From the IMG/VR virus record IMGVR_UViG_3300031485_000046: DNA of 64,000 nt; one strand, given 5' to 3'. The DNA is from a virus. The notes under the pieces were generated by a model, which was not told the origin of the DNA, made no database searches, and saw nothing but the letters and a program-made list of their open reading frames with translations. Made by a program: the position numbers and the translations under genes. Every line of letters begins with the position of its first letter. Positions within the stretch are counted from its first letter, which is position 1. Below, in pieces: positions 14,326 through 62,293 of the stretch.

Positions 14326-14370
14326 CCATAAATTGGTACCATAAATTGGTACCATATCCTGGTTTACCAG
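14326..14370. repeat. Tandem repeat ATAAATTGGTACC (about 2.5 copies)
   Basis: Direct read of sequence. Confidence 0.6.
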
Positions 14371-14688
14371 CATGTGGTAACCTTACCTCCATCCTTACCA
14401 TCACCTATACCACCATTCATCTGGATCTAATCTGCCTATACCCATATTTAATCTATGGTATTTAATAAATGGACACCATATTTCATAAATGGATAGCCAA
14501 AACCATACAAGCCATATCCTATTCCGTATTCCAATCCAATATATAGATACCTATACCTCCACTTCACCATGTACTGGGAAACCCAGTAATTGGTATAAAA
14601 AAATGGGACCTAAGTGTGGTAACCTAGATTTATCTATGTATGATCGTTTATATAGTGAAACCGAGATTTATACCTATTATTTTGTCCT

Positions 14689-15080
14689 CCACTATACCAA
14701 TACGGTGGTATGCTGGATTGTAATCAGGAAATTCAAATACGGAGTAGACCTCGATGTTTTACTATGTATATATAGAACGTATCTTTATAACAGTACCTAC
14801 CAACTATCCACTACGGTGGTGTGTTGGATTGTACTTATAAATATGTGGAAAATAGAAAATGGGAGGTATTTCGATGTTTTACTATGTAGAACCGACGGTC
14901 TGTTTTTGTCAGGAATCTTCCAACTATCCACTACGGTGGTATATTGGGAGATACTTACCGAAACGTGTATGATATGAAATGGGAGGTATTTCGATGTTTT
15001 ACTATGCATATATAGAGATATTGATTGGTTCCCATTTACCCTATATCTTACCCAGTATCCACTACGGTGGTATGTTGGGT
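14689..15080. repeat. Four direct repeats, period about 120-130 bp, with conserved cores CCACTACGGTGGT and GGGAGGTATTTCGATGTTTTACTATG
   Basis: Core copies at about 14689, 14801, 14921, 15051; second core at 14751, 14871, 14991. Confidence 0.7.
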
Positions 15081-15168
15081 AGTATTAATCCGTAGTATGG
15101 GTAGGTACTGTCTAGATTGTTTATCTATATATAGAGAATGAATAAGGTGTGTCCATTCCCAAAATACC

Positions 15169-15697
15169 TCAGGCCCTCCATTATCTAGAATTTTCCCCAA
15201 TTATAAAAATTTGTCAACCTCTGGCAGCTAAATGGAGTATAAGTATCCTACGGATACATGTATAAAAATGAAATCTTGGACACGTATCCAACGGATTATT
15301 TTATAAAAATGGGATTGGATTATTTTTATTTATACAGGTTCAATTTGAGAAAATGCACCTGTTTGAGTTTTCGATGGGTAATTGGTATAACAATAGTTGG
15401 ATTATATAAAAACGGTATGGGATAATACCAGACCCGTTTTGAAGGCATAAATTGCATAAATCAGTTCCGTTTATTTTTTTATTTCCTATGGATGGTACCG
15501 AATATTTCGAGGAGAAAAGGAATCCATAAAAATCATACGAGGTTTTTCATGCTACCTAATCCAAAATACGTGGCGAATTTTCGGCTCCGTAATCGTTTTT
15601 CTAGAGGTGAGCGGTGAATTCATACCGGTAGAAAATGAGCGCCTTCTAGCGCACCGCTGGCGGAGAAACTCATTGGCGGAGAAACTGGCGGAGAAAA
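15169..15697. repeat. Non-coding element B: TCAGGCCCTCCATT box (15169-15182) and three GGCGGAGAAA(C/A) repeats (15659-15669, 15675-15685, 15687-15697)
   Basis: Homologous end motifs and spacing to element A (2881-3398). Confidence 0.6.
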
Positions 15698-15748
15698 TGG
15701 ATGGATTTTTCTGTTTTTCTGTTTTTCTGATTGTTGTACATCGTTTCT

Positions 15749-15797
15749 ACATTCTACATTCTACATTCTACATTCTACATTCTACATTCTGCATTTC
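15749..15797. repeat. Heptanucleotide tandem repeat ATTCTAC, about 7 copies
   Basis: Direct read of sequence. Confidence 0.75.
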
Positions 15798-16019
15798 AGA
15801 AGAATGCATGTGGTACTTTATAAGATGCATGTATGCAATGTCATATGCATCCTTAATTGTCTCCTGATTACTATACAATTATACACTATTCCTATTCCTG
15901 TTTCAATCGTAACAGATATTTTACTATTATATAATAATCTATAGTATTGTGTCATATTGTAGAATATTCTTATATTCATGAATATCAGACAAGCATAATG
16001 CAGAATGCATATTATACAA

Positions 16020-16213
16020 TGCATTATTCAGCTATATTTTTCACAAGCATTTTTTAGTAGTACAATGCATAATGCAGAATGCATCATGCATTATTCAATG
16101 AAACATTTCACAAGTGTTCATACAGTGCATACAATACATTCTGCATCATGCATCATGCATTATTCAGCTATATTTTTCACAAGCATTTTTTAGTAGTACA
16201 ATACATTCTGCAA
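16020..16213. repeat. Two copies of a 50-bp direct repeat (16021-16070, 16157-16206) plus three copies of TTCAATGAAAYATTTCACAAG
   Basis: Direct read of sequence; repeats about 136 bp apart. Confidence 0.6.
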
Positions 16214-16439
16214 TATGCATTGTATAGCATGTATTATTCAATGAAACATTTCACAAGTGTTACTGTATCCGAAGAGTATACAATGCATTTTTCAATGAAA
16301 TATTTCACAAGCGATACTGTGATCGAATTGTATCTGAATGACTATACAATTCACTATTATTTTATAAAACTCTATAGTATTGCAGAATACAGTAGAATTC
16401 AGTAGAATTATATTAAGTGTATAGTCTTTTCATGCATAG

Positions 16440-16467
16440 TTGACATTCTATCGTAGAGTGCTATACT
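16440..16467 (+). promoter_or_regulatory. Sigma-70-type promoter for three-gene cassette
   Basis: TTGACA (16440-16445), 16-nt spacer, TATACT (16462-16467). Confidence 0.5.
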
Positions 16468-16584
16468 GTACTCGTAGCAAGCGAGCGAGCAAGTTCTTTG
16501 ACAACTGAAGAAGCAAGCTCATAACAGAGTAACACTTCTTCAGAACATACGCGCACAACGTTGCGCAGAAAGAGAGTGTGTAGC

Positions 16585-16923
16585 ATGACAACGAGCAGCA
16601 AGAAGAACGTAAACAGTAAGAAAGCTGAAATAGTCGAACAGAAAGCAGTTGAAGTAAAGAAAGAAGAAGTAAGAGAAGCAAAGAAGATTAGCAATACTCA
16701 GAAGTGTGCTGATATGATCATGCAACTTGCGAAAGACGCTAAGTATACTCGCAGTGAAATTTGTAATGCTGTTTCAGATGCACTAACAGCATTAAGCATA
16801 GTCACAGTAAAGACTATGCTTTCAGACTTGCAGAACAGCAAGTATGCAAGACGTTATAGCACTCATACTATCGCAGTAAACAAAGAAACAAAGATTGTAA
16901 CAGTAGCAAGTGAGATAAAATGA
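16585..16923 (+). CDS. Hypothetical lysine-rich protein (cassette gene 1)
   Basis: ATG at 16585 downstream of promoter; 5' leader contains 9-bp inverted repeat CTGAAGAAG/CTTCTTCAG (16503-16545). Confidence 0.55.
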   Translation: MTTSSKKNVNSKKAEIVEQKAVEVKKEEVREAKKISNTQKCADMIMQLAKDAKYTRSEICNAVSDALTALSIVTVKTMLSDLQNSKYARRYSTHTIAVNKETKIVTVASEIK

Positions 16924-17132
16924 AGTATCAGCATGTTGAACGTTCGCAAGCTCTCGCAGTAAGTGACGTTGAAACTTTGCAGAATATTGCAAAAAGACGT
17001 CTGATCGATTTGAAACAGCTTGCAAGAGAAGCAGACTCTTTACTTGTCTTTTCAGTAATAAGAAATACATGTATTCAAATCGATCGAAGCATCGATGATG
17101 CACTTGAAAACGCAAGAAAATTACTGAAGTAG
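16920..17132 (+). CDS. Hypothetical protein (cassette gene 2)
   Basis: ATGA overlap with upstream stop. Confidence 0.5.
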   Translation: MKYQHVERSQALAVSDVETLQNIAKRRLIDLKQLAREADSLLVFSVIRNTCIQIDRSIDDALENARKLLK

Positions 17133-17141
17133 TACAAAAAA

Positions 17142-17185
17142 AGATAGTCAAGTATCTACAATTCGATACTTGACTATCTTTTTAT
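17142..17185 (+). terminator. Rho-independent terminator
   Basis: Perfect 15-bp stem AGATAGTCAAGTATC/GATACTTGACTATCT, 8-nt loop, T-rich tail. Confidence 0.6.
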
Positions 17186-17208
17186 CTCATTTGAAAGAGA
17201 GTGATACT

Positions 17209-17532
17209 ATGTTAGATAATCAGTATGAATTACATCAAAAGATACAAAAAATAGAACACAAGCATATCAGATTACATGCAAGCAATTGTATGTACAAATT
17301 GATGAATATTCAATTGTTACTTGAAGAACAGATTAATCTACTCATTTCTGATATTGTAGCAAATGATGCTTCTGTTAGTGAAATATTGCTAACAGAACGT
17401 CAAAGTACATTTGATAATGAACTTTTTGCGATAACGACAAAAGAAGATAGAAAAGCAATAGCAATACTGCATAATACTATAATCGATAGTATGAATGCAG
17501 TAAGAAAGACAATCATCTATACAGACGAATAA
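17209..17532 (+). CDS. Hypothetical protein (cassette gene 3)
   Basis: ATG at 17209 (MLDNQYELHQ) after weak RBS; ORF track start at 17170 lies inside the terminator. Confidence 0.5.
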   Translation: MLDNQYELHQKIQKIEHKHIRLHASNCMYKLMNIQLLLEEQINLLISDIVANDASVSEILLTERQSTFDNELFAITTKEDRKAIAILHNTIIDSMNAVRKTIIYTDE

Positions 17533-17574
17533 AATTACACAATAGAGCATAATTGATAGCAATTGAATAGAAAA

Positions 17575-17612
17575 GAGTAGTCAATACTAGACTACTCTTT
17601 TCTTTTTTATTC
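17575..17612 (+). terminator. Rho-independent terminator
   Basis: Stem AGAGTAGTC/GACTACTCT, 7-nt loop, T-run. Confidence 0.6.
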
Positions 17613-17750
17613 ATGCATACAATGCATGATGCATCCTGCACTATGCATAGTATAAGCGTTCATAGTAGCATTTGATAACATAACACTACACTATTTATTA
17701 CAATTAGACAATATACTACAATATGATAGTGTAGTGTGTATTGTCTATTC

Positions 17751-17794
17751 TATACACTACAATATAGACAAGTATACACTACAATATAGACAAG
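17751..17794. repeat. Tandem 22-bp direct repeat TATACACTACAATATAGACAAG (2 copies), flanked by inverted repeat ACACTACACTAT/ATAGTGTAGTGT
   Basis: Direct read of sequence. Confidence 0.6.
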
Positions 17795-17998
17795 TATAGA
17801 ATAGAGTATAATAATCTATAGTATGCTACACTATATAGCAATATAATATAATAATATATAATTGTATAGTAAAGCAGATACAATTCAATACAATGACTGC
17901 GCTAGTATACAATGCATGATGCATGATGCATCGTACACAATGCATAATGTAAAATCGATTTTACACGTTGCAGAATGCATGCTGGCTCCTGGCCCCCT

Positions 17999-18452: not shown

Positions 18453-18674
18453 ATAGAAACTATGTTTGTCGTAATATATCTTGAAAACGCATCAGATTCG
18501 TTTCATACTGTGCGATTTCCTTGCTTATGGAAGCTGTTCGTTCTGTTTCAGACGTTGTTTCTATCGTCTAGAGTGAAAAAGATCGAATACCGTGCAAGGA
18601 TTTAACGTGTCATGCCATCCCATTCGGTTGTTCCCTCCGTCCTTGCGACTTTCCTATAAGGGATGGAAACCGGG

Positions 18675-18893
18675 TCATTTCGCCCGCTCCTCCCAGAACC
18701 GTCTGCGTCGCTCCTCCCTGTGACGCTTGATATTCTCCCGCACCCTCTGCGTGCGGGGCGGGAACGTGTTCAGATGGGTCAGCACCGGCTCCACGCTGAC
18801 AGCTCTGCCGAATTCCCTCTCCCATTCCTGGGCGTAGATTTCCTCGTAGGATAACATTTCGCGAAATCTGAGCCCCGTGCATCGTCCGCTCAT
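18675..18893 (-). CDS. Small basic, arginine-rich protein encoded in a GC-rich patch
   Basis: ATG overlaps stop of KdsB-like gene (ATGA); local composition visibly GC-richer than surroundings. Confidence 0.4.
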   Translation of the reverse strand: MSGRCTGLRFREMLSYEEIYAQEWEREFGRAVSVEPVLTHLNTFPPRTQRVRENIKRHREERRRRFWEERAK

Positions 18894-19684
18894 TCCTTAC
18901 CCTCCTTTTTTTCTATAATTTCATCATATTCATTTTCTTTACCAGAGTTTATTATACAACGAACAGCTTCCAAATCAGCAGGAGTATCTACACTAGGTCC
19001 AACTTTTTTTGCTCTTGTTATTTCTACTTTAATGGAAAAATCATGTTCTAATATTCTGAGCTGTTCCAGTGATTCTGCTGATGCCAAAGGTGTTTGTGGC
19101 ATTTTGGCATAATAATGGATTAAGAAACGTCTAGTAAATCCATAAATTCCTATATGTCGGTAGATGGGATATACTTCTTCCGGATCTCTAATAAAAGGGA
19201 TAGGAGACCTACTGAAATATAAAGCATCTCCATTTATTCTGAATGCCACTTTTACTACCGATGGATCATTGATAGTAGCGGTATCTGTAATAAGGGCACA
19301 TATCGTAGCAGATTCCGTAGCCCTATTTTCAGTTTTATAAAATAATGATATTACTTCATCAATCATACAAGGATTAAGTAATGGTTCATCCCCTTGTATG
19401 TTTATCACTATATTATTATTAGAGAATTTTTTAGCTATTTCCACAACTCTACTAGTTCCGTTTGTATGATTTGGAGAAGTTAGCATAGCTTCTCCACCGA
19501 AATTATTTACAGCCTGCACGATTCTTTCATCGTCAGTAGCTACAATCAACCGGTCAAGTAAAGTAGATCGTGAGGCTCGCTCGTACACTCTCTGGATCAT
19601 TGTTTTTCCGCATATATCAGCTAGAGGTTTACCGGGGAGCCTTGTAGAATTGTATCTAGCGGGGATAACTCCTAAAGTTATCAT
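18890..19684 (-). CDS. kdsB: CMP-Kdo synthetase-like cytidylyltransferase (3-deoxy-manno-octulosonate cytidylyltransferase family)
   Basis: IPARYNSTRLPGKPL, VATDDE, GGE, QGDEP, ALYFSR, HIGIYGF, LEQLR, VDTPADLE match KdsB signature blocks as recalled. Confidence 0.85.
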   Translation of the reverse strand: MITLGVIPARYNSTRLPGKPLADICGKTMIQRVYERASRSTLLDRLIVATDDERIVQAVNNFGGEAMLTSPNHTNGTSRVVEIAKKFSNNNIVINIQGDEPLLNPCMIDEVISLFYKTENRATESATICALITDTATINDPSVVKVAFRINGDALYFSRSPIPFIRDPEEVYPIYRHIGIYGFTRRFLIHYYAKMPQTPLASAESLEQLRILEHDFSIKVEITRAKKVGPSVDTPADLEAVRCIINSGKENEYDEIIEKKEGKE

Positions 19685-20914: not shown

Positions 20915-21044
20915 CAATGTCCCTCCTTATAAATTTGCGCTTCACTATATTATACAACACCATTTTTGCTCATTTATACATAGTTTTCCATGAAAATTGT
21001 GTTTAATTTGCAATTATAGTATACTGTATAGTTTTCTGTCATAG

Positions 21045-21073
21045 TAGACAAAATTGAATTATGGGTATATAAT
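21045..21073 (+). promoter_or_regulatory. Sigma-70-like promoter for morphogenesis operon
   Basis: TAGACA (21045-21050), 17-nt spacer, TATAAT (21068-21073). Confidence 0.5.
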
Positions 21074-21095
21074 GTATTTATAATACGGTAAGGAG

Positions 21096-22556
21096 GTGAG
21101 TAGGATAGAAAATATCAGTACCAACGAATTGGTTGGGCAATTACAGCGGATTACAGCTATGGCTGAACTGGCTACAAGAATGAATGTCGGTGCTAGGATG
21201 GGAATGCAGTATGACGGCCAACGGGATATTGCAAAAGCTCTTGGCTACCCACAAACAATACGGTACAACGACCTCCTTGCCGCATATACCCGTCAGGATA
21301 TGGCGAAAGCCATTATAGATCGTCCCGTAAAATCTACTTGGCGTGGAGATTTCAAGCTAGTAGAAACCCACAGGGACGATGATACGCAACTCGAAACAGC
21401 TTGGTCTACATTATATAGGAAATTGCACATAAAACAGAATTTCCTTAGAGTGGACAAGCTAGCCTGCCTCGGTAATTATGCTCTTCTTTTTCTTGGTTTC
21501 AATGATGTGAATAGTCCTGAAGAATTGATACGACCTGTTTCTGCTGGAGTAGGACGTGAATTGCTGTATTTGAAACCGTTTGGACAGAATGTCATTCAGA
21601 TCAAAGATTGGGAAGATGATACAAGTTCACCTGAATATGGAATGCCGCTTATTTATGAAGTAGACATTGGAGAAGCATCATCTAAAAAGAGCCGAACTGT
21701 CAGCATCCATCGGTCAAGGATTGTTCATGTAGCTTTCGACCTACTTGAATCAGAGTATGAAGGTGCTCCTGTTCTAGAAGTTGTTTTTAACCGTCTGAAA
21801 GACCTTGAAAAGCTAGTAGGCGGTTCTGCTGAAATGTTCTGGAGAGGTGCTAGACCTGGATATGCAGGTAAAATTGATCCAGAATACATGCTGACGAAAG
21901 ATACGGAAGAGGGATTGAAACGCCAGCTGGATGAGTTTGAAAATAATCTGCGAAGGATACTCATGCTTGAAGGTGTTACACTCGATAGCCTTGAGCCGCA
22001 GGTAGTTGACCCGTCTATGCACGTTGATATCCAGATTCAGATGATTTCTGCTATTACTGGTATTCCTAAGAGAATTCTTACAGGAAGTGAGCGAGGTGAT
22101 CTTGCTTCTACGCAAGACAAAGATAACTGGCTCGACCTTATCCAAATGCGACGGGAAGAATATGCTGAACCTAAGATCATTCGAGCAACCATTGACCGTT
22201 GTATTGAATTTGGTGTGCTTCCTAAGCCTGAAAAGGAAACATACAAAATAAAATGGCAGGATCTTTATGCACCGTCTGTTAAGGATCAAGCGGACATTGG
22301 GCAGATACGTTCGCTTGCCTTGAAACATTATACGTACAATCCTGAAGCAGAGCAGTTTATCCCGTTTGAAGCGTTCCTTACATTCTTCCTTGGTTTGGAA
22401 GATGAGGAAGTGGAGTATATCAAAAAGCTCCAGCAAACAAGTGAAAGGATATTGACGCCTGAATTAAAGGAACTTGCGAATGAAAATGCACCAACACGGA
22501 GAGAACGCCCTCCGCGGAGAGGAATACCTCGAGAGGATGAAGAACTAGAAAAGTGA
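21096..22556 (+). CDS. Portal protein
   Basis: Size and position (first gene of head module after terminase region); GTG start abuts RBS so true start may be downstream. Confidence 0.75.
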   Translation: MSRIENISTNELVGQLQRITAMAELATRMNVGARMGMQYDGQRDIAKALGYPQTIRYNDLLAAYTRQDMAKAIIDRPVKSTWRGDFKLVETHRDDDTQLETAWSTLYRKLHIKQNFLRVDKLACLGNYALLFLGFNDVNSPEELIRPVSAGVGRELLYLKPFGQNVIQIKDWEDDTSSPEYGMPLIYEVDIGEASSKKSRTVSIHRSRIVHVAFDLLESEYEGAPVLEVVFNRLKDLEKLVGGSAEMFWRGARPGYAGKIDPEYMLTKDTEEGLKRQLDEFENNLRRILMLEGVTLDSLEPQVVDPSMHVDIQIQMISAITGIPKRILTGSERGDLASTQDKDNWLDLIQMRREEYAEPKIIRATIDRCIEFGVLPKPEKETYKIKWQDLYAPSVKDQADIGQIRSLALKHYTYNPEAEQFIPFEAFLTFFLGLEDEEVEYIKKLQQTSERILTPELKELANENAPTRRERPPRRGIPREDEELEK

Positions 22557-22568
22557 GCAGGCTATTGG

Positions 22569-22629
22569 GGCAGACTAGGGAAATAACTACACTTACTTAT
22601 AATGGGCAGGTTTATTTGCCCTAGTCTGC
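22569..22629 (+). promoter_or_regulatory. Stem-loop between portal and scaffold genes
   Basis: GGCAGACTAGGG (22569-22580) pairs with CCCTAGTCTGC (22619-22629); internal GGGCA/TGCCC sub-hairpin. Confidence 0.4.
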
Positions 22630-22696
22630 TTCTCCTGCTCCAGCTATTCTTCATTCTCCTGATAATATAGATTGCAAAGGAGGTGGTGATTAAACA

Positions 22697-24121
22697 ATGA
22701 CAACCGCAGTAATCAGTATGTATCAGGTGCAGGCAAATAATTATGAAATTCGTATGGAAACGTACATGGGAAGAAAGCATTTGATCGTTCCTGTAGTGAT
22801 GATGGTAGAAGGTGTGCATTGTGGTAGTGCTGGCCCGTTGTTTCATTCAATAGAAGAGCTTGGTAAGTACCCTGATTCTTGGAATGGAATCCCTGTTTCT
22901 ATTCAGCATCCCGAGCAAGATGGGCAGTATATTTCCGCAAACAGTCCTGAAGTTCTTGAACGGCAGACTGTTGGGCAGGTTTTCAATACGTTTGTTGATG
23001 GAAATAAGCTAAAAGCAGAGTGCTGGATTGACATTGAACGTATTACCACTATTAGTCCAGAAGCATACGCATATCTCCAGAATAAACGACCTCTGGAAGT
23101 GAGTATTGGTGTGTTTTCAGATGATATTCCACAAGAAGGCGATTGGAACGGAGAACATTATATAGCTGTTGCCACCAATCATCGTCCTGATCATCTTGCT
23201 CTTCTTCCTGGTGGCAGAGGTGCGTGTTCCTGGGCAGATGGAGCAGGTATCAGAGCCAATTCTATGAAGAAAGGAGGAGAGCCGGTGGATATTACTGCAA
23301 CGATAAAGGATCTTGTGTGTAAAGGATATGGAGTTCTATCGTATCAGAGTAATGAAGGTTTTCGTTCCATTATGTCGCAGATACAGGATGTGCTCAATGG
23401 GTACGATACGGGTCTAAAACTGCATTATCTGTCGGAAGTATACGAGGATTTTTTCGTATATGAGGTGAATTCTCGTATCAATCCAGAAACCTACATTACA
23501 TCCGTAAAGTATTACAAACGTCCGTATTCTGTTAATGAAGATGGAAAAGTTACGCTGGGAGATGTAGCTACGGAAGTGATGCGCAAAATTGTGTATGATG
23601 AGGTTAAAACTAATTCCAAGTATCGAAGAAAGGATGATGTGAAAGTGGACAAAGCAAAAATGGATATTCTGGTCCAGAGCGGAGTGTTTTCCGAAGCTGA
23701 CCAGGAGTGGCTTACGGGACTCGATGCCGAGCGCCTTGATAAGCTGGTTACTGCTTGCACTAAGAAAGTGGAAACTCCGCAGGCGAATGAGGCGAAAGTG
23801 GATATTCCCACAGTCATTCAGGCACTGGCTGAACAGTTTAAGACTCCTGAGCAGTACATCCAGCTGATGCCGGAAGAAATGCGTGATCAGATGGAATCGG
23901 GACTGAAACTGCACAGGGAACAGCGTCAGGCAGTCATTGACAAGATCAAGGCGTTCAATGTATTTTCGGAAGAAGAGCTTCAGAAAAAATCTATGGATGA
24001 ACTGAACAAGATTTCTAAGCTGATTCCTGCGCCTAGGGATTATTCGCTTGCCGGAGCCAAATCTGTCAATACGAATACGGAAACTGAGGAAGTTCTGCTT
24101 CCTCTCGGGCTGAAAGCCTAA
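22697..24121 (+). CDS. Putative prohead protease/scaffolding protein
   Basis: Position after portal; N-terminal globular domain followed by acidic coiled-coil region; RBS AAAGGAGGTGGTG. Confidence 0.55.
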   Translation: MTTAVISMYQVQANNYEIRMETYMGRKHLIVPVVMMVEGVHCGSAGPLFHSIEELGKYPDSWNGIPVSIQHPEQDGQYISANSPEVLERQTVGQVFNTFVDGNKLKAECWIDIERITTISPEAYAYLQNKRPLEVSIGVFSDDIPQEGDWNGEHYIAVATNHRPDHLALLPGGRGACSWADGAGIRANSMKKGGEPVDITATIKDLVCKGYGVLSYQSNEGFRSIMSQIQDVLNGYDTGLKLHYLSEVYEDFFVYEVNSRINPETYITSVKYYKRPYSVNEDGKVTLGDVATEVMRKIVYDEVKTNSKYRRKDDVKVDKAKMDILVQSGVFSEADQEWLTGLDAERLDKLVTACTKKVETPQANEAKVDIPTVIQALAEQFKTPEQYIQLMPEEMRDQMESGLKLHREQRQAVIDKIKAFNVFSEEELQKKSMDELNKISKLIPAPRDYSLAGAKSVNTNTETEEVLLPLGLKA

Positions 24122-24142
24122 TAAAAAGGAGGGTAAAAGAAT

Positions 24143-24634
24143 ATGGCGTACAATACCATCAAAGTTAAGAAGTATTCGGATGTTATTGAGGAGAAAGTTG
24201 CCAGTGCGGCAATCACTCCGGGTATGCTTCTCATCATTGAAAGTGCAGGTACTGTGAAAGCGCACGATCAGGCGGATAAGGACGCATTTCCTATTTTCGC
24301 ACTTGAGGACGAACTTCAGGGCAAAGGGATTGATGATGCGTATGCAGCGAATGACCCTGTCCAGTGCTGGATTCCCTATCGCGGAGATATTGTGAATGCT
24401 ATTCTCGCTGACGGACAGAAGGTTGTTATTGGGGATCCTCTTACCAGTGATGGCTACGGTCGCCTGAAGAAGCATGTTACCGACGTTGGTGCGTCTGCGG
24501 CTGAACTTGTTTCCGTGTACCCGCTACAGATTGTTGGGTATGCCGCCGAAGCTCTTGACCTGTCTGGTTCTAGCGGAGCCGAAGTTTCAGGCCCTCTCGG
24601 CTATCACAAGCGCCTGCTCGTCAGGATTGCGTAA
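24143..24634 (+). CDS. Putative head decoration protein
   Basis: Small ORF immediately upstream of capsid gene (lambda D-E-like order); RBS AAGGAGGG. Confidence 0.45.
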   Translation: MAYNTIKVKKYSDVIEEKVASAAITPGMLLIIESAGTVKAHDQADKDAFPIFALEDELQGKGIDDAYAANDPVQCWIPYRGDIVNAILADGQKVVIGDPLTSDGYGRLKKHVTDVGASAAELVSVYPLQIVGYAAEALDLSGSSGAEVSGPLGYHKRLLVRIA

Positions 24635-24661
24635 TCACAAACATAAGGAGGAGTGCTGAAT

Positions 24662-25783
24662 ATGGAACCCAATGTCTATATGGATTTTCTTGCTAACGGA
24701 GCGGCTCAGGGAGAAGTTGCCCAGAACCTTCAGGTGAATGGTCGGCTTGATCCTGCTATGCTTCGTCCGTATATTGGAAGGGATGGAGCATCCTACATCA
24801 CCGTCTGCAAACACGGTGCTGATCCCAAGGATCCTAAGAGTTATCAGTCTATCCGCGTGAATTCTGGTGCAACTCTTCGCAGAGAAGAGTGGCAGTATCT
24901 GGACGAGGCTGTTCTCAATGTTTCTCGGTATCGTCTTGGCGGTATTGCTGACCTTGAGGCAAACGGACTTGTTTACAACCTCAACAATGCTATGGGAACC
25001 ACCGTTCTTGAGTACCATGATGTATCTGACGCTTTCGAGGCAGAACTTACGATGGATGGGGTTACTAGGAGCAAGGGAGACCGTGTGAATTTCGGTGCAA
25101 AGTACCTGCCCATTCCTATCATTCATGTGGACTACGAGATTAATGCTCGTGTTCTTGCCGCTTCTCGTAGCCTTGGTAATGCGCTCGATACGACTCAGGC
25201 AGAAGTTGCCGCTCGTAAGGTTATGGAGAAGCTAGAGAAAATGATGTTCACCAGCGAAACTTACTCGTTTGGTGGGGGAACAATCTATTCTCTTGTCAAT
25301 CATCCTCATCGTAATCCTGTTACTCTCACGGTGAATTGGGATGATAGTACGTCTACTTCTTCTGGTGATCCTGTCATTACAGGTGCAAAGATCATTCAGG
25401 ATGTTCTTGCTATGAAGCAGGCAAGCATTGATGCTTACCACTATGGTCCCTGGATGCTATACATTCCGACCGCATACGAAACAGTCCTTGACTCGGATTA
25501 TGATACCGTTACGCCTGGCACTACGATTCGGGAGAGGATTATGAAGATCGAAGGTATCAAAGGTATCAAGGTTATTGATGTACTCGCTTCCAATAACGTG
25601 CTCCTTGTGCAGATGACCCCCGATGTGGTTCGCCTTGTGAAGGGCATGGCTATTCAGAACGTGGAATGGCAGACTGAGGGACGCTTCATCAATAAGTACA
25701 AAGTTATGACGATCCAGGTTCCTCAGGTTCGTTCTGACTACAACCAGAAGAGCGGCATCGTTCATCTCGCTCCTGCACCCTAA
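24662..25783 (+). CDS. Major capsid protein
   Basis: Size and position; ATG 24662 with AAGGAGG RBS. Confidence 0.7.
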   Translation: MEPNVYMDFLANGAAQGEVAQNLQVNGRLDPAMLRPYIGRDGASYITVCKHGADPKDPKSYQSIRVNSGATLRREEWQYLDEAVLNVSRYRLGGIADLEANGLVYNLNNAMGTTVLEYHDVSDAFEAELTMDGVTRSKGDRVNFGAKYLPIPIIHVDYEINARVLAASRSLGNALDTTQAEVAARKVMEKLEKMMFTSETYSFGGGTIYSLVNHPHRNPVTLTVNWDDSTSTSSGDPVITGAKIIQDVLAMKQASIDAYHYGPWMLYIPTAYETVLDSDYDTVTPGTTIRERIMKIEGIKGIKVIDVLASNNVLLVQMTPDVVRLVKGMAIQNVEWQTEGRFINKYKVMTIQVPQVRSDYNQKSGIVHLAPAP

Positions 25784-25830
25784 AGGTTAATATCAGGCTA
25801 ATCACGCCTATATAAAGGAGGCATGTAAAA

Positions 25831-26259
25831 ATGGTTGAAAGTAAGGCAGTAAAGAAAAAGGTAGTAAAGAAAAAGGTTGTTGAAAAGAAAGAACCTGAAA
25901 TTACTACTTCCAAAACTGAGGTGATTACTCCTCAGATTGTTGTTACCCCTCCGGGAATGTGTACATGGAGGAAAAAGGAAGGTGCTACATTCAGGCTTGG
26001 TAATGGTAAGAAAGTAAAGCCGAATGAAGTATTCAAGGCGTATCCTCGTGAAATTCCGCCTGCATTTCGTGACCTGTTTGAATTGCTTGAAGGTGATGAG
26101 AATGCTGTGGAACGAGTGATTACCGCTCCTTCTAAGTTTGCTATTGGTGAACGTGAAGACGGTATGTTTGATGTAGTTGATCCTGATGGTAAGTGTATCA
26201 ATGATGTTCCGCTCGGTAAAGAGGATGCCGAAAAACTGCTTATAGCACTCTCTACTTGA
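25831..26259 (+). CDS. Hypothetical protein with lysine-rich N-terminus
   Basis: RBS AAGGAGG; 142 codons. Confidence 0.6.
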   Translation: MVESKAVKKKVVKKKVVEKKEPEITTSKTEVITPQIVVTPPGMCTWRKKEGATFRLGNGKKVKPNEVFKAYPREIPPAFRDLFELLEGDENAVERVITAPSKFAIGEREDGMFDVVDPDGKCINDVPLGKEDAEKLLIALST

Positions 26260-26263
26260 TACA

Positions 26264-26977
26264 ATGCGGGCGTGGAATACTCCGAGGATATGGGATAAAG
26301 GTGAATGTTGGATAATAGGAGGAGGACCTTCTATTATGCGACAGTTCCATATTCCTGAGAATGTGATTGAGGCGGTTAGAGAAAAAAGATTACCGCTTTC
26401 TGCATATTCTCCGTACATGGAAAGCATTCATTCTAAGCATATCATCGGAGTAAACATGGCATTCCAGCTAGGAAATTGGGTTGATTTTTGTTTCTTCGGA
26501 GACGATGGTTGGTTTCGGGACCATAGAAAAGAATTAGCCCAATTTACTGGTGTAAGGGTATCTTGCGCACCTATGTTCAGTAAAAATACGTACCATGCAG
26601 ATAATGGGGAACGTATTAAGTACCTAGCGCAGGATCCTAAAAAATCACACGGTATTAGTGAAGTACCTTACACCGTATGTTGGAATGCAAATAGCGGAGC
26701 GGCGGCAATCAGCCTAGCTTCTCATCTAGGTGCTAAAAAGATTGTTCTGTTAGGATTCGATATGCAGTTAGATCCTAATGGAAATAGTCATTGGCACAAA
26801 GAGTATCAAATGAATCCAGCAAAACGATCCGTGTTTCCTCGACACCTTAGAGGGTTTCCAATTATCGCCGCGGATGCTAAACGGATGGGCATCGAAATAC
26901 TAAATGCCTCACCTGAAAGCGTAATAGACGATTTTCCTAAAATGACAGTGGAGGCGATATTGAATGGTTCTCCATAA
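26264..26977 (+). CDS. Sialyltransferase-like (CMP-sugar-dependent) glycosyltransferase candidate 1
   Basis: Motifs CWIIGGGPS, SGAAAISLASHLGAKKIVLLGFD, HWHKE resemble GT42/GT29-type and Maf/DUF115-type transferases (recalled). Confidence 0.6.
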   Translation: MRAWNTPRIWDKGECWIIGGGPSIMRQFHIPENVIEAVREKRLPLSAYSPYMESIHSKHIIGVNMAFQLGNWVDFCFFGDDGWFRDHRKELAQFTGVRVSCAPMFSKNTYHADNGERIKYLAQDPKKSHGISEVPYTVCWNANSGAAAISLASHLGAKKIVLLGFDMQLDPNGNSHWHKEYQMNPAKRSVFPRHLRGFPIIAADAKRMGIEILNASPESVIDDFPKMTVEAILNGSP

Positions 26978-27578
26978 AAACAATATCGCGGTTATAGGAC
27001 ACGGTCCTAGCACTCGTGGAAGGAAACTAGGCAGTTTCATTAACCTTTGTGATACGGTCATTCGCATGATCGAATGTGATTGGCAGGATGCAGAAGATTA
27101 CGGTAGTAAATATACGATCGGTGTATATGCTACGGGAGGATCTGACGATTTTACAAAGGTGATTGAACGAAAGCCTTCTCTTTGCTGGTGGGTGTACGTT
27201 GCGGCTGGAACCCGTCCTTCTACGGCGATGAATGATGATACAGTAGATGCTCCAGGTGTTGCGGGTCGTCCGATACGGTGGTTACGAAGAACCGTATGGG
27301 ATTGGATCGGTGATAATAAAAAGTTCTCTAGAGGTACTGCTGCCGCGATTGCGTCTATGGCGATCCTAAAACCCACTACAGTTCATTTAGTTGGGTTTGA
27401 TGATGTTGCAAGGGGTGGAATGCTGAAAGGAGCATATCATCCTCCTGAGTTGCAACAGTACCTCAAAGAACAAGGAAAGACACTTGCCAGAAGTGAAACA
27501 GACCATGATTGGAATAATGAAGGCACCGTACTCCAACGTGCCGCAGACTATTACGGAGTTGAGGTGAATTTTCTATGA
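26964..27578 (+). CDS. Sialyltransferase-like glycosyltransferase candidate 2 (paralogue)
   Basis: Motifs IAVIGHGPS, RGTAAAIASMAILKPTTVHLVGFDD, HDWNNE; RBS GGAGGCG. Confidence 0.6.
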   Translation: MVLHKNNIAVIGHGPSTRGRKLGSFINLCDTVIRMIECDWQDAEDYGSKYTIGVYATGGSDDFTKVIERKPSLCWWVYVAAGTRPSTAMNDDTVDAPGVAGRPIRWLRRTVWDWIGDNKKFSRGTAAAIASMAILKPTTVHLVGFDDVARGGMLKGAYHPPELQQYLKEQGKTLARSETDHDWNNEGTVLQRAADYYGVEVNFL

Positions 27579-28813
27579 AGACAATATCAGAGGAATATAT
27601 TCGCCTTAATTCTGAGGTACACAACCAGCGGAGAGGGTACGGTAATTCAGCCAATCGGTTTGCTAAGGACATTGGGCTTGTTTTGCATCAGTTCCACACA
27701 ATGTCTTTTCTGGATTATGGATGCGGAAAAGAATCTTTGATCCGTTGTATTACGAAGGACTATCCGTATCTTGCCCAGAGAGCAAAGTATGGAGCATACG
27801 ATCCAGCTATACCGCACCGGTCCGTTAAGCCGGAAGAGCAGTATGATATGGTTATTTCTACAGATGTTCTTGAACACATTGAACCTGAATATCTGTCAGC
27901 CGTGCTGGAAGAGATCAAAGGATATGCTAAAAAAGGCGTCTATCTGAATATCTGTATGCGACCGTCAGGAGATATTCTACCTGATGGTCGAAATGCCCAT
28001 CTGATCGTTAAAGATGCCCCGTGGTGGCGTGAAACACTATCCAAAGCGTTTGAAGGATGGGCACTGGAAGAACGGGATGTACTTGACTCTTGGCGCAATT
28101 ATACAGTAGTATTGACACCACCTAAGATTCAAAAGCCATTAAATATCGTCTGTTTCTACTGGAAAGGTACGAGTAATCGGTACCCAGGATGGGACGATGT
28201 GGATTTGGCAAAGATTTATGTCAACAATCTGTATAATGGCGTCCGTCGAAATTTGAACAAGGATTACAAGTTCATCTTGTTTTCCAATGATATTGAAGAT
28301 GGGCTGGATCCACATGTAGAGATACGAAAGTTCCAGCCTATCTCGTGGACAGGGTGCAATCCTAAGTTGTATGTGCATAGCCCAGATGCAGGATTAGAGG
28401 GAAGGGTGCTTACGTTTGATATGGATACTATCATCGTAGGAGACCTTACTAATTTTGCAGAATACGATGGGGCTTTCACTACACGGATGGAACCTGACCG
28501 AAGAAGAGTAACAGCAGGAGACCTGCTAGGATTTGAAGCAGGTGAAACGTACCAGTTATGGGAGAATTATAAGAATATCTCCAAGTATGCTGAAAAGTAT
28601 CAAGGAGATGAAAGGGAGATCTACAAACTTCTTTGGAAACATTTGCTGTACTGGCAAGAAGAAATACCCGGGCAGTTGGTTTCTTATAAAGGTGATGTTC
28701 GTCCTAATCAGAACAGACTGCCTAGAAATGCAAGAATTGTAAGTGCGCACGGTAAGCCTCGTCCGCATGAGATCAATGCGGAATGGATTAAATCGTGTTG
28801 GTGGGGAAAATGA
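27575..28813 (+). CDS. Fusion protein: N-terminal class I SAM-dependent methyltransferase, C-terminal domain of unknown (possibly transferase) function
   Basis: FLDYGCGKESL (motif I-like) and MVISTDVLEHIEP (motif II-like); C-terminal FDMDTIIVGD. Confidence 0.6.
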   Translation: MKTISEEYIRLNSEVHNQRRGYGNSANRFAKDIGLVLHQFHTMSFLDYGCGKESLIRCITKDYPYLAQRAKYGAYDPAIPHRSVKPEEQYDMVISTDVLEHIEPEYLSAVLEEIKGYAKKGVYLNICMRPSGDILPDGRNAHLIVKDAPWWRETLSKAFEGWALEERDVLDSWRNYTVVLTPPKIQKPLNIVCFYWKGTSNRYPGWDDVDLAKIYVNNLYNGVRRNLNKDYKFILFSNDIEDGLDPHVEIRKFQPISWTGCNPKLYVHSPDAGLEGRVLTFDMDTIIVGDLTNFAEYDGAFTTRMEPDRRRVTAGDLLGFEAGETYQLWENYKNISKYAEKYQGDEREIYKLLWKHLLYWQEEIPGQLVSYKGDVRPNQNRLPRNARIVSAHGKPRPHEINAEWIKSCWWGK

Positions 28814-29526
28814 AACCGTATGTAGAATCTCCCATTATCATAACAGGTTGTCCACGAAGCGGAACTAGCATCATTTCTGGGATGTTAGAAATATGTGGTG
28901 CATTTGCAGGAACTATTCCACAGCCTACGAAACACGAAACAAGAGGCATGGGAGAGAATCGGGTTATATATGAGGATGTTGTTAAACCGTATATTCAGAG
29001 TTTGCAAGCGGATCCATCTGGACAATGGCCATTGATGGATTCTGAAAAACTGATGATTCCTATCGACTGGGAATCAATGATTTCAGACGCCTTGCACAAG
29101 GATGGCTATATGGGAGGCAAATGGCTATATAAGAGTAATACTGCGGCTCTTATGTGGAAAGTGTGGTCCTACGCCTATCCTAGCGCCAAATGGGTCCTAG
29201 TACGCAGGCGTACAGGTGACATAGTTTCTTCATGTTTGCAGACCTCGTATATGAAAGCATTCAAAAATCCTGCATATCGTAAGGAAATTGGAGCGGAAAC
29301 AGAATCAGAAGCATGGATCCATTGGGTACATAAGTATGAAGAAGCCTTTGTAGGGATGTTGACTGCGGGAGTTAATTGTAAGGTTGTCTGGCCGGAAAGA
29401 TTCGTAAGAAACGATTATCAACAGTTGTATGAAGTAATTGAATGGGTAGGGCTTGAATGGAAATCTTCTGTAGCAGATTATCTAGACCCAAAGCTATGGA
29501 AGAATGAACGGAAGGAGGAGTGCTGA
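28810..29526 (+). CDS. Sulfotransferase
   Basis: IIITGCPRSGTSIISGML (5'-PSB PAPS-binding motif) and VLVRRRTGDIVSS (3'-PB-like); ATG 28810 overlaps upstream stop (ATGA). Confidence 0.7.
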   Translation: MKPYVESPIIITGCPRSGTSIISGMLEICGAFAGTIPQPTKHETRGMGENRVIYEDVVKPYIQSLQADPSGQWPLMDSEKLMIPIDWESMISDALHKDGYMGGKWLYKSNTAALMWKVWSYAYPSAKWVLVRRRTGDIVSSCLQTSYMKAFKNPAYRKEIGAETESEAWIHWVHKYEEAFVGMLTAGVNCKVVWPERFVRNDYQQLYEVIEWVGLEWKSSVADYLDPKLWKNERKEEC

Positions 29527-29894
29527 TGGCTAGAGTAACTCCAGCGGAAGTAAAATTGATCCTTCCTGATTCTGAACTGACAGATCCTACGATCACTGCG
29601 TTTATCACCAGTGCGAATAATCTGGTAAATGCAGTGCTTACGGATTACTTGACGGAGCCGTTGCTTACCGAAGTAGAAAAATGGCTGACCGCGCACATGA
29701 TTGCTTCTACAGTTGAGAGAATGGCAACTAGGGAAGGTGCCGGCGGTGCAGAAATTTACTACACGGGTAAGTACGGACAGAATCTAACATCCACACCATA
29801 CGGCCAGATGGTGCTGTCGTTAGATCCATCAGGAAGAATGGCGGCTCTCGGTGGCAAGACTGTCACCATGATTGCCATTAAGAATTTTGATTGA
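29527..29894 (+). CDS. Putative head-tail connector/adaptor protein
   Basis: Position and size; ATG 29527 with AGGAGG RBS. Confidence 0.55.
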
Positions 29895-30277
29895 TGGTTA
29901 GCGGGCTTATCAAGTTCATAAAAAAAGTGTGTGTTCAGCCTGCCGTTTATTGGGGTGCTCCGAAGCCCGATGGATTTGGCGGAATGACATACGGCACTCC
30001 CGTAGAAATAAAATGTAGGTGGACAGATAAAGTGCAGGTAATAAAGTGGCAAAGTGCATACGTACCGACAAGTAATGAATTTATTTCTTATGCGGAAATA
30101 CTGTTGTATTATGATGTGGAGCTTCAAGGTGTGTTATGGCTTGGTTCTCTTACATCCTTGTCTACCACACAAAAAGCCGCTCCACTTACAATACCTGGCG
30201 CACGGGAAATAAAGACATTGGAACGGGTTCCTTTGTTCAGATCGTCTACGGAATTCGTAAAGAAGGTGTATCTGTAA
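29891..30277 (+). CDS. Hypothetical head-tail joining protein
   Basis: Operon position; 4-nt overlaps. Confidence 0.55.
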   Translation: MMVSGLIKFIKKVCVQPAVYWGAPKPDGFGGMTYGTPVEIKCRWTDKVQVIKWQSAYVPTSNEFISYAEILLYYDVELQGVLWLGSLTSLSTTQKAAPLTIPGAREIKTLERVPLFRSSTEFVKKVYL

Positions 30278-30771
30278 TGGCATACGCGGTATGGAATGGT
30301 TTGCCAAAAGTGATTCAAAATCTAAATGCACAGATAATGAAAATTCAGGGACGAACACTACTTGGATTGATACGTGGTGCATCAATTATCAAAGATACGA
30401 TGGATTCTATGCCTCCTGTTATACCTGTTGATACAGGAAATATGCGCCATAGTTGGTTTGTTGTCACGAACAATGGTGGTGTTCGAGCTGGAAAGAATCC
30501 TAGTTTTCTGCCGGGTCCGCATAATGATCGAGATGTTGCAAAGCTAAAGAGTGACCACGCTAAGGCGATTTCAGTATCCGCTTCTATGATTAAAGGCAAA
30601 GAACCGGCGGTAGCATTAGGTTTTTCTGCCTATTATACGATGTGGGTACATGAAAACGTAGGCGCACATTTTACAAAACCGGGTTCTGGTGCTAAGTTTT
30701 TTGAAGCAGGAATAAAAAATAGTACCAAACGAGTATTGATGGTGATACAATCGGAGGCGAAAATACGATGA
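30277..30771 (+). CDS. HK97 gp10-like neck/tail completion protein
   Basis: VDTGNMRHSW motif; ATG 30277 overlaps upstream stop (TAATG). Confidence 0.6.
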   Translation: MAYAVWNGLPKVIQNLNAQIMKIQGRTLLGLIRGASIIKDTMDSMPPVIPVDTGNMRHSWFVVTNNGGVRAGKNPSFLPGPHNDRDVAKLKSDHAKAISVSASMIKGKEPAVALGFSAYYTMWVHENVGAHFTKPGSGAKFFEAGIKNSTKRVLMVIQSEAKIR

Positions 30772-31205
30772 ATGCTCCTTCTATTGATATAAAGGATATT
30801 TTAGCGTATATTCCTCCTTCCGAATCATCTAGTGGATACGATCCTGTTAATGAGTTTGGATTAACATTCGGATCAAATTTATTTGTAGGACGAGAGCCTG
30901 CACAACCAGACGAAACAGTTACAATTTTCGACGTTGTAGGATGGGAGCCTCAGCTTACCTTTAACAAAGAAGAGATATATGAGTACCCGGCTGTTCAAGT
31001 AAGAGTTCGTTCCAGATCGTATGTCACTGGTTGGAATCTTCTTGAACAGATTGTACGGAGGTTGCACGGAATTGCTCAGGAAACATGGAATGGGACATTG
31101 TATAGTGTAGTGCGGTGTTCCAGAGCACCGATGCTCTTGGATTGGGATGAAAATGCAAGAGTGCGGTTAATTGCTAGTTTTGAAATTCAAAGGAGGAGTG
31201 CTTAA
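30768..31205 (+). CDS. Putative tail terminator/neck protein
   Basis: Position between neck genes and major tail protein. Confidence 0.55.
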   Translation: MNAPSIDIKDILAYIPPSESSSGYDPVNEFGLTFGSNLFVGREPAQPDETVTIFDVVGWEPQLTFNKEEIYEYPAVQVRVRSRSYVTGWNLLEQIVRRLHGIAQETWNGTLYSVVRCSRAPMLLDWDENARVRLIASFEIQRRSA

Positions 31206-31206
31206 T

Positions 31207-31641
31207 ATGGCAATTGCTGGTGTTGGAACAGTATTCAACCGTTGGGACCCTACAGCGGGATCGTCGGGCGGATGGAAAAGAATTGCGGAGATTAACAATA
31301 TCACTGGCCCGGGTATGTCGAGGGATACGATTGATACATCCACCCTTGATACTGAGGGCGGATATCGGACATTCATCACAGGATTCAGAAATGCAGGCAC
31401 CATGACCCTTGCGATGAATTTTACTCAGGCAACCTATCTTCAGATGAAGGCAGATTTTGAGAGTAATGATCCTGTTTCTTATCAGGTCATTCTTCCGGAT
31501 GATGAAGAAACTGTGATCGAATTCGATGGACTTGTTACTGAAATTCCGTTGACGATTCCTACGGATGACAAGATTACTGCGGATGTTACGATTCAGATCA
31601 GCGGCCCTGTTGATGTATTCAAGGGCAGTAGTGGAATGTAA
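31207..31641 (+). CDS. Major tail protein
   Basis: Position upstream of chaperone pair and tape measure; ATG 31207 with AAAGGAGG RBS. Confidence 0.7.
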   Translation: MAIAGVGTVFNRWDPTAGSSGGWKRIAEINNITGPGMSRDTIDTSTLDTEGGYRTFITGFRNAGTMTLAMNFTQATYLQMKADFESNDPVSYQVILPDDEETVIEFDGLVTEIPLTIPTDDKITADVTIQISGPVDVFKGSSGM

Positions 31642-31660
31642 TTAAGAGAGGAGCCTAATC

Positions 31661-32083
31661 ATGGCATTTTTGAACAGGGAAGAACTTCTGAAAAAAGCAC
31701 CGTTTAGGGTGGAACGAGTAGATTTTCCTAATGGGGATTTTGTGTTCGTTCGCCAAATGTCTTCTAAGATGAAAGATCAGCTAGAAAATTCGGTTCTTAG
31801 GCGTAGTATTGACAAGAACGGACAGGTACAGTTTGAACAGGATCTTTCAGGATTCAATGCAAAAGTAGCGGCACTTTCTCTTTGTGATGAAGAAGGTAAT
31901 CTGCTTCTTTCTTTGAAGGATGCAGACCTGCTTGCAGAGAACAAACCCGCAGAAATGATTGATACCATTTCTCTTAAAGCAGGTGAACTGAACGGCATTT
32001 CTGTCAATGCGAAAGAGGAAGCAGTAAAAAACTCCGAGAGCGGCACACCCGAAGATTCCTCTTCAGGTTGTGTCGAGAATTAG
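31661..32083 (+). CDS. Tail assembly chaperone (gpG-like)
   Basis: Acidic small protein directly upstream of tape measure, with overlapping -1 frame ORF. Confidence 0.7.
   Translation: MAFLNREELLKKAPFRVERVDFPNGDFVFVRQMSSKMKDQLENSVLRRSIDKNGQVQFEQDLSGFNAKVAALSLCDEEGNLLLSLKDADLLAENKPAEMIDTISLKAGELNGISVNAKEEAVKNSESGTPEDSSSGCVEN
32026..32032 (+). other. Candidate -1 programmed ribosomal frameshift slippery site A_AAA_AAC
   Basis: Heptamer in zero frame of chaperone ORF (codons GTA AAA AAC); -1 frame open from 31987 to 32433. Confidence 0.55.
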
Positions 32084-62292: not shown

Positions 62293-62293
62293 C

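Follow-up and report, generated by a model that had tools for sequence, protein, structure and literature searches.

The head operon of a tailed phage, whose 64,000-nucleotide (nt) genome is the whole stretch of DNA analyzed here (the window; IMG/VR record IMGVR_UViG_3300031485_000046), contains two adjacent genes whose products, proteins A and B, are remotely related and represent two different families within the sialyltransferase-like fold. Protein A is a minimal Maf/MptE-like (DUF115) domain, and protein B is, judged from its sequence, a minimal GT29-like sialyltransferase domain with predicted activity. Both are predicted to be soluble cytoplasmic glycosyltransferases (GTs) of the GT-A variant 2 fold that use a cytidine monophosphate (CMP)-activated 2-keto-3-deoxy acid sugar as the donor, the CMP-sugar being expected because of their fold and family. 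The genes from that for a small protein just upstream of A to that for a sulfotransferase-family protein are read as a cytoplasmic cassette within the head operon, and we put at about even the chance that this cassette uses a CMP-ulosonic acid and probably glycosylates a virion protein. An earlier reading of the window’s letters, hereafter the original prediction, had proposed that two paralogous sialyltransferase-like proteins are encoded at this site. Both of its open reading frames (ORFs) proved to be real and exactly placed (Table 1), and the peptides that it quoted were located in A (CWIIGGGPS at residues 15-23, LGFD at 163-166 and HWHKE at 176-180) and in B (IAVIGHGPS at 8-16, LVGFDD at 142-147 and HDWNNE at 181-186).

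The assignment of B is carried by profile searches and by its predicted structure. Alone, B matches the GT29 family of Pfam (PF00777) with 14.6 bits and an expectation value (E) of 0.022, which is under the gathering cutoff of 23 bits. A word-indexed search with B retrieved 14 close homologues and an exhaustive profile search retrieved 451 cluster representatives, from which the 89 relatives that make up the B-family profile were drawn. Fifty of these 89 proteins match PF00777 at E≤0.01 (best 3.5e-14), and their profile aligns at full length with pig ST3Gal-I (2wml; E 2.2e-11), as well as with ST6Gal1, ST8SiaIII and ST6GalNAc2 (~1e-6) and with CstII (E 0.01-0.02). In searches of the Protein Data Bank (PDB), single sequences of A and B returned noise only and the close-homologue profiles A1 and A2 gave marginal matches, while B needed the 89-member profile. 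An AlphaFold2 (AF2) model of B has a predicted local distance difference test score (pLDDT) of 78.4, and its 45 best Foldseek matches in the PDB are all sialyltransferases, with a probability of 1.0 and template modeling (TM) scores, relative to the query, of 0.5-0.59. These matches comprise the GT29 enzymes ST6GalNAc2, ST8SiaIII, ST3Gal-I and ST6Gal1, the GT42 enzymes Cst-I and CstII, and one Pasteurella multocida sialyltransferase, the GT42 structures ranking alongside or after those of GT29. The original prediction had named GT42 and GT29 together with Maf/DUF115; a Maf/DUF115-like A, a GT29-like B and the shared GT-A variant 2 fold stand, whereas neither protein matches the GT42/Cst family of Pfam at E≤1, and the likeness to GT42, whose Campylobacter members Cst-I and CstII act on lipooligosaccharide, is at the level of the fold only.

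Alignment of the B-family profile to ST3Gal-I also recovers the sialylmotifs L, S and VS in colinear order. The L motif-like segment of B extends from I8 to M35 (vaivGhGps..G..ID..D.V.Rm, as compared with CAVVGNSGN..G..ID..D.V.RMN in ST3Gal-I), and the S motif-like segment comprises S122-R-G124 and G144-F-D146 (SrG...GfD as compared with STG...GFG). The VS motif corresponds to H181-D-W-N-N-E186, in which a histidine and a glutamate are separated by four residues (HDwaaE as compared with HDGDFE). As Rao and colleagues reportedly described in 2009, the VS motif of GT29 enzymes carries the catalytic histidine. Across the 89 relatives, G12, G14, G124, G144, H181 and E186 are invariant or nearly so, with H181 invariant and E186 conserved in at least 90 %. 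In the region of sialylmotif III, the segment K155-G-A-Y-H159-P-P-E of B lies opposite HHYWE..NP in a gapped alignment, and H159 is invariant among close relatives only. The start of B (MVLHKNNIAVIGHGPS) contains no hydrophobic anchor, and there is no cysteine at the L or S motif positions. These features are shared by bacterial GT29-like proteins, which also have no transmembrane or stem region and no L/S-motif cysteines (Petit et al. 2018, PMC5811610); B differs from GT29 members in being much shorter (204 residues) and phage-encoded, and in that its motif III is not clearly recognizable. A tblastn search with B of 50,697 GenBank phage records found no homologue.

Protein A is most closely allied to Maf. 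It matches PHROG 4603, which is annotated as ‘alpha-2,3-sialyltransferase’, at 3.7e-34, and its metagenomic family is large (365 matches). Its own match to PF01973 (MptE-like/DUF115) scores 19.8 bits (E 7e-4), under the cutoff of 34.6 bits, and spans only residues 143-168; among 18 diverse relatives of A, 16 match this family at E≤0.01, the best at 2.7e-8. A diversified profile of A reaches MptE in the PDB at E 0.018 and does not reach Maf or CstII by sequence. The predicted structure of A has the fold of the central catalytic domain of Maf, which it matches in Foldseek at 9e-6, with CstII at 1.6e-5 and the GT42 structures coming after Maf. Compared with Maf (PF01973; structure 5MU5), A represents a catalytic core of about 230 residues with a sequence identity of 14 %. 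An alignment that ranges from the window phage to homologues in Caulobacter, Brevundimonas, Pseudomonas and P1-like phages contains nine invariant residues (G21, S23, N64, D80, S144, G145, G164, D166 and H178), and the key conserved stretches are G19-G-G-P-S23, N64, D80, S144-G145, G164-F-D166 and H176-W-H178. Residues required in Maf are E324 and D415 in M. magneticum, and D272, S334 and D357 in C. botulinum (bioRxiv 10.1101/2020.06.03.131540); D80, S144 and D166 of A follow the same order of an acid, a serine and an aspartate, a correspondence by order only. Whereas Maf genes lie in a flagellar glycosylation island, A is encoded by a phage within its head operon. We regard the fold and family assignments of both A and B as solid.

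Three boxes had been taken as common to A and B in the original prediction, namely GxGPS (GGGPS at 19-23 in A, GHGPS at 12-16 in B), GFD (164-166 and 144-146) and a histidine-tryptophan box (HWH at 176-178 and HDW at 181-183). The pattern G.GPS occurs three times in the ~128,000 residues of the six-frame translated window, and two of these three occurrences lie within the neighboring A and B ORFs; the composite pattern in which G.GPS is followed after 100-170 residues by GFD and after a further 5-45 residues by H.?W is found in the A and B ORFs only. This scarcity indicates that the sharing of motifs exceeds chance, and the GxGPS and GFD boxes are indeed conserved in the families. The third box fared differently, as the two family profiles align H176-W-H178 of A with A157-Y-H159 of B, and H181-D-W183 of B with P192-R-H194 of A, so that its apparent sharing is a coincidence of spelling. 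The term paralogous likewise holds at the superfamily level, where the kinship is seen by profile-profile comparison only. With progressively broader alignments, hhalign of the two families gave 62 %, then 93 % and then 94.6 % (final E 6.5e-8), the similarity being limited to 77 C-terminal columns that run from SGAAA...GFD through the last strand. A BLASTP comparison of A with B is not significant (E 0.1), and a recent tandem duplication was rejected on this ground; the two proteins belong to different families and are not tandem duplicates.

The A and B genes are embedded among the head genes of the phage (Table 1). B starts 14 nt before the stop codon of A, and the successive overlaps from A through the head-tail adaptor gene are 14, 4, 4 and 1 nt. 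B is joined by an ATGA junction to the gene for a fusion protein, which matches PF13489 (E 2.3e-7, above the cutoff), the methyltransferase family phrog_24759 (2e-19) and the glycosyltransferase family phrog_1962 (4.5e-21). The sulfotransferase gene that follows probably starts at the ATG at 28810, again in an ATGA overlap with the upstream stop codon; its product scores well above the PF13469 cutoff of 27 bits and contains the sequence GCPRSGTS, which resembles a loop that binds 3’-phosphoadenosine 5’-phosphosulfate (PAPS), and RRRTGDIVSS. Neither the GT-like C-terminal domain of the fusion nor the sulfotransferase gave informative matches when searched by sequence against the PDB, where the fusion has no solved relative. 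Immediately upstream of A lies a gene for a small protein that has no match in Pfam and may serve as an adaptor, as an acceptor or as an accessory protein of the head. Downstream of the adaptor gene lie those for a tail terminator and a tube protein. A promoter and terminator scan of the head region gave the same result as shuffled sequence, and terminator-like sites were not in excess; the position of the cassette suggests that it is expressed late, together with the head genes.

Table 1. Positions of the cassette, its neighbors and other features in the window.
Feature	Position	Strand	Remarks
Large terminase	12119-13714		tailed-phage genome
Tandem repeat	14751-15016		120-bp x2.2
Tandem repeat	15745-15795		TTCTACA x7
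Tandem repeat	16019-16262		67-69-bp x3
Tandem repeat	17751-17810		22-bp x2.7
KdsB, CMP-Kdo synthetase (3-deoxy-manno-octulosonate cytidylyltransferase)	18890-19684	-	variable terminase-portal interval; PF02348 E 1.5e-56
Portal	21096-22556	+	head module
Protease/scaffold	22697-24121	+	head module
Head decoration protein	24143-24634	+	phrog_766, 5e-16; candidate glycan acceptor
HK97-type major capsid protein	24653-25783	+	DUF6260 8.2e-23, phrog_771; upstream cassette border; candidate glycan acceptor
Small protein, 142 residues	25831-26259	+	Lys/Glu-rich variable N-terminus, two conserved segments; phrog_36081 (unknown function)
Protein A, 237 residues	26264-26977	+	minimal Maf/MptE-like (DUF115) domain; first cassette enzyme
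Protein B, 204 residues	26964-27578	+	minimal GT29-like sialyltransferase domain (predicted)
Methyltransferase-GT fusion, 412 residues	27575-28813	+	S-adenosylmethionine (SAM) methyltransferase ~39-159; GT-like ~218-409 with F-D-M-D (DxD-like)
Sulfotransferase-family protein, ORF of 243 residues	28795-29526	+	PF13469 Sulfotransfer_3, E 2.5e-11, 44.7 bits
Head-tail adaptor	29520-29894	+	downstream cassette border; start overlaps sulfotransferase stop codon

To place the cassette in a wider context, we compared it with about 25 related loci from metagenomes, IMG/VR and bins of metagenome-assembled genomes (MAGs), roughly 10 of which are near-identical to the window phage, leaving ~15 distinct loci whose capsid proteins range in identity from 98 % down to ~42 %. 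Searching for related loci with a narrow alignment of B yields close relatives only. Gene order is constant across the distinct loci: decoration protein, capsid protein, small protein, A, a variable interior, a sulfotransferase-like gene and the adaptor gene. The small protein directly precedes A in nearly all of them, and every locus long enough to include the adaptor gene has a sulfotransferase-like homologue directly in front of it. The interior, by comparison, varies both in content and in length (1.8 kb in the window and up to ~6.7 kb in relatives). It may consist of B and the methyltransferase-GT fusion, as in the window; of a second MptE-like gene with GT-D, GT2 and several methyltransferases; or of GT11, Gly_transf_sug, a GDP-mannose-dehydratase-like epimerase and GT2; an FdtA-like cupin and FkbM-type methyltransferases are also found among the interior genes. 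B is present in a subset of the loci and directly follows A wherever A is also detected. At loci whose capsid proteins are 52-64 % identical to that of the window, A (43-54 %) and the terminal sulfotransferase-like protein (33-47 %) are retained, and in most loci at this distance the divergence of A parallels that of the capsid protein, as is expected if A recognizes a conserved virion protein.

Several individual loci deserve mention. At L014, L015 and L025 the head flanks are 96-98 % identical to the window, as compared with 94 % for B and 87 % for the sulfotransferase-like protein, so that the cassette genes either diverge faster than their neighbors or are exchanged by recombination. At L008 (10692-11357) a second MptE-like, A-type protein occupies the position of B, and the A and B families seem interchangeable there. 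In a 2.4-Mb contig (L005, GCA_900198705.1; 5077-12330), a copy of the module from the portal onward stops partway through the fusion gene, after which the contig continues with unrelated genes; a decayed prophage or a chimeric assembly may lie behind this arrangement.

Among cultured phages, a megablast search of GenBank phages with positions 21000-32000 of the window found no match, and, judged by the capsid protein, Brevundimonas phage MaInes is the closest relative (34 % identity). MaInes has the same head module, in which the capsid gene is followed by an unrelated small ORF, with no detectable similarity to the small protein of the window, and then by the adaptor gene, which is 35 % identical to that of the window (E 6e-14); the cassette is absent. 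The occurrence of the head module without the block indicates that the segment from the small protein to the sulfotransferase is an accessory insertion. Cultured Pseudomonas phages such as vB_Pae_U7 and phita81A have lone A-like genes that lie between those for the capsid protein and the adaptor, and others are found in giant phages of Caulobacter and Brevundimonas, next to tail and GT genes, as well as in P1-like phages; the sole functional label that they carry in these records is a homology-based ‘sialyltransferase’. Two of these genes appear to be incompletely annotated. In Pseudomonas phage vB_Pae_U7 (L001, 5842-6486) the A-like gene is annotated as 134 residues within an open frame of ~215 residues that contains ASGPS, and in the P1-like Escherichia phage vB_EcoM-673R5 (L022, 5001-5600) the N-terminal half of the A-like ORF is unannotated.

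A candidate for the donor sugar is provided by a gene for KdsB, the synthetase of CMP-Kdo (Kdo, 3-deoxy-manno-octulosonate), which is located between the terminase and portal genes. The gene is authentic, as its product exceeds the NCBIfam cutoffs for NF003952 (287.3 bits, cutoff 193), NF003950 (273, cutoff 234) and TIGR00466 (212.3, cutoff 155.2), whereas it scores 46.5 bits against the PseF model, for which the cutoff is 205.7. It is 57-64 % identical to the nearest bacterial KdsB proteins, the top named matches being from Synergistota. This makes KdsB a possible clue to the host of the phage; an actual host assignment was rejected as unreliable, because related contigs occur in MAGs of many phyla and the KdsB affinity is toward Synergistota. 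Genes for KdsB are rare in phages, being present in 7 of the 50,697 GenBank phage records. The only other record in which both KdsB and A homologues were noticed is LR756500.1, from an uncultured 462-kb phage, which encodes homologues of KdsB (45 % identity) and of the A family (25 %) at 130143-130814 and 212319-212894. Just downstream of kdsB in the window, a segment rich in guanine and cytosine (18610-18890, minus strand) contains only short Gly/Ala/Arg-rich ORFs and has no Rfam match. We favor Kdo as the donor because the phage has its own kdsB and CMP-Kdo is available in any diderm host. B may use Kdo instead of sialic acid. Maf enzymes attach both Kdo and N-acetylneuraminic acid (Neu5Ac) onto flagellin at its serines and threonines (bioRxiv 10.1101/2020.06.03.131540), and plant GT29-like proteins have been proposed to transfer Kdo or 3-deoxy-lyxo-heptulosaric acid (Dha) (PMC3522684).

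These observations can be combined into a working model of the cassette, in which the order of steps is deduced from the genes. The location of the block between the capsid and connector genes suggests that the phage covers its virion in an acidic sugar, and a virion protein is the favored acceptor because of this location and because the block is co-conserved with the head genes. A would prime the glycan by transferring the first acidic sugar onto a serine or threonine of a virion protein (the decoration, capsid or small protein), in the manner of Maf acting on flagellin; we assign this step to A because, of the catalytic genes, it alone is conserved with a fixed place at the block's start among all relatives, and because it co-diverges with the head genes and has a Maf-like core. 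The sugar would most likely be Kdo, with CMP-Kdo drawn from the phage KdsB and the host pool. B would then add a second ulosonic acid or cap the glycan, the GT-A-like DxD domain of the fusion would add a further, non-ulosonic sugar, and the methyltransferase and sulfotransferase would decorate the product. A fuller and more tentative scenario, which we rate as possible, extends this scheme to a widespread uncultured lineage of tailed phages, probably infecting diderm bacteria, that O-glycosylates its own capsid, decoration or accessory head protein by a Kdo-type start with the Maf-like enzyme, extension by the GT29-like protein and a hypervariable, O-antigen-like set of GTs, and subsequent methylation and sulfation.

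Several points weigh against glycosylation of the virion with an ulosonic acid. A and B, taken alone, both fall under the Pfam gathering threshold; the confidence of the B model is moderate (pLDDT 78); and A, with 237 residues, has none of the large N- and C-terminal domains of Maf (5mu5, 632 residues), which may, we conjecture, contribute to acceptor recognition. In addition, kdsB is encoded on the other strand, ~6.6 kb from the cassette. The corresponding region of L014, which is 94-98 % identical to the window, has no kdsB, and none was seen within 10 kb in any related locus; its absence from the L014 interval makes it look like a recently acquired accessory gene. The Kdo link is thus specific to the window genome and circumstantial, and the idea that KdsB and the cassette form a conserved unit was rejected because close relatives have no kdsB.

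The cassette could instead remodel a glycan on the host surface during infection, with A and B adding Kdo-like sugars to the lipopolysaccharide (LPS) core, the O-antigen, the capsule or flagellin, perhaps as a means of blocking superinfection or of keeping progeny from adsorbing to debris, and with KdsB boosting the supply of donor; we consider this unlikely, though not to be neglected, as KdsB belongs to the LPS-core pathway, the interior genes (GT2, GT11, FkbM methyltransferases, GDP-sugar dehydratase and FdtA) resemble those of O-antigen and capsule loci, bacterial GT29-like genes have been discussed alongside LPS ulosonic acids (PMC5811610), and flagellin, the natural Maf substrate, is a host-type protein. 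A host target is harder to reconcile with the fixation of the block within the head-morphogenesis operon, where it overlaps the adaptor gene in every relative, with the co-divergence of its first and last genes with the head proteins, and with the absence from the block of any gene for a membrane-anchored protein, flippase or polymerase. Phage surface-conversion genes usually lie near lysogeny modules and are accompanied by membrane proteins, which also counts against this explanation.

It is also conceivable, with a low probability, that A is an enzyme of the MptE/thiamine-pyrophosphokinase type, acting as a (pyro)phosphokinase or binding nucleotides, and that B is the sole sugar transferase of the pair. 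The second-best fold for the model of A is indeed a kinase of the same superfamily, so that calling A a transferase leans partly on gene context. Least probable, and in our estimation very improbable, is that the enzymes glycosylate a component of the phage other than protein, such as hypermodified DNA bases prior to packaging. The genome does contain base-modification genes (QueC, QueF-like, ThyX and a deoxynucleoside monophosphate (dNMP) kinase), and hypermodification of DNA with diverse glycans by phage GTs is known (bioRxiv 10.1101/2023.12.21.572611). However, enzymes for cytosine or thymidine hydroxymethylation were not found among the ORFs scanned, and the cassette is situated in the head operon, away from the nucleotide-metabolism arm. 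To our knowledge, Maf- or GT29-type CMP-sugar enzymes, sugar methyltransferases and sulfotransferases have not been reported to act on DNA, which also speaks against this alternative.

Glycosylation of a virion protein, which we favor over a host-surface or DNA target, has its nearest precedent in mycobacteriophages. Phage-encoded GTs glycosylate the virions of phages Che8 and Rita (Freeman et al. 2023, as cited in PMC11256854), where glycosyl- and methyltransferases are thought, or were shown, to modify capsid proteins in the cytoplasm ahead of lysis, as we propose for the cassette; PMC11256854 places the mycobacteriophage GT genes near the right end of the genome, in contrast to the position inside the head operon described here. 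In the papers covered here, virion glycosylation in phages is described only for mycobacteriophages, in which it shields the particle from antibodies. Mycobacteriophages have mycobacterial hosts. The system in the window is predicted from its genes. We know of no virion-glycosylating enzyme of a mycobacteriophage that has the sialyltransferase fold.

Maf, the GT29 family including its bacterial GT29-like members, GT42 and mycobacteriophage virion glycosylation are thus already known. What is new is a GT29-like family carried by phages, the occurrence of a minimal Maf-like core next to a minimal GT29-like one, their location in a head-operon block that has constant ends but a changing interior and belongs to a widespread uncultured lineage, and the association with a phage kdsB; a literature search found no published description of such a GT29-like/Maf-like head-operon block in phages. 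If the proposal is correct, this would be the first phage system known to glycosylate virions with acidic sugars, and GT29-type sialyltransferases would have a possible reservoir in viruses; the proposal would likewise imply that particle glycosylation is commoner than thought, is achieved by sialyltransferase-fold enzymes and diversifies like bacterial surface antigens. Such a system would be relevant to phage stability, adsorption, immune recognition and engineering. A and B are among the smallest Maf-like and GT29-like domains and, being soluble and disulfide-free by prediction, should be well suited to structural studies and to the glyco-engineering of proteins with Kdo or sialic acids. 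Phage GT29-like genes also bear on the debate over whether eukaryotic sialyltransferases arose in bacteria and spread laterally. The lone A-like gene at the same position in cultured Pseudomonas phages makes the idea directly testable.

The remainder of the genome is that of a tailed phage. Further genes encode RecA-like, clamp and clamp-loader-like proteins, ThyX, a dUTPase, a dNMP kinase, QueC, a QueF-like protein and a tail module, and scans of the window for tRNAs and Rfam families returned no matches. Of two adjoining ORFs on the minus strand (55511-57355 and 57319-58590), one encodes a family A DNA polymerase that contains an intein (Intein_splicing/HINT, residues ~189-308), and the upstream one encodes a domain of the uracil-DNA-glycosylase family fused to the 3’-5’ exonuclease domain. 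Genes for QueC, a QueF-like protein and a member of the Vut_1 family (PF02592, ‘putative vitamin uptake transporter’) are located at 61179-62436 and 46440-47090, both on the minus strand. The presence of QueC and the QueF-like protein suggests 7-deazaguanine metabolism and possibly modification of the phage DNA, and the Vut_1 family includes the YhhQ queuosine-precursor transporters. Finally, a stretch at ~14300-17800 is AT-rich (33-35 % GC), contains few ORFs and harbors several tandem repeat arrays (Table 1); it may function as an origin of replication, in regulation or in packaging.

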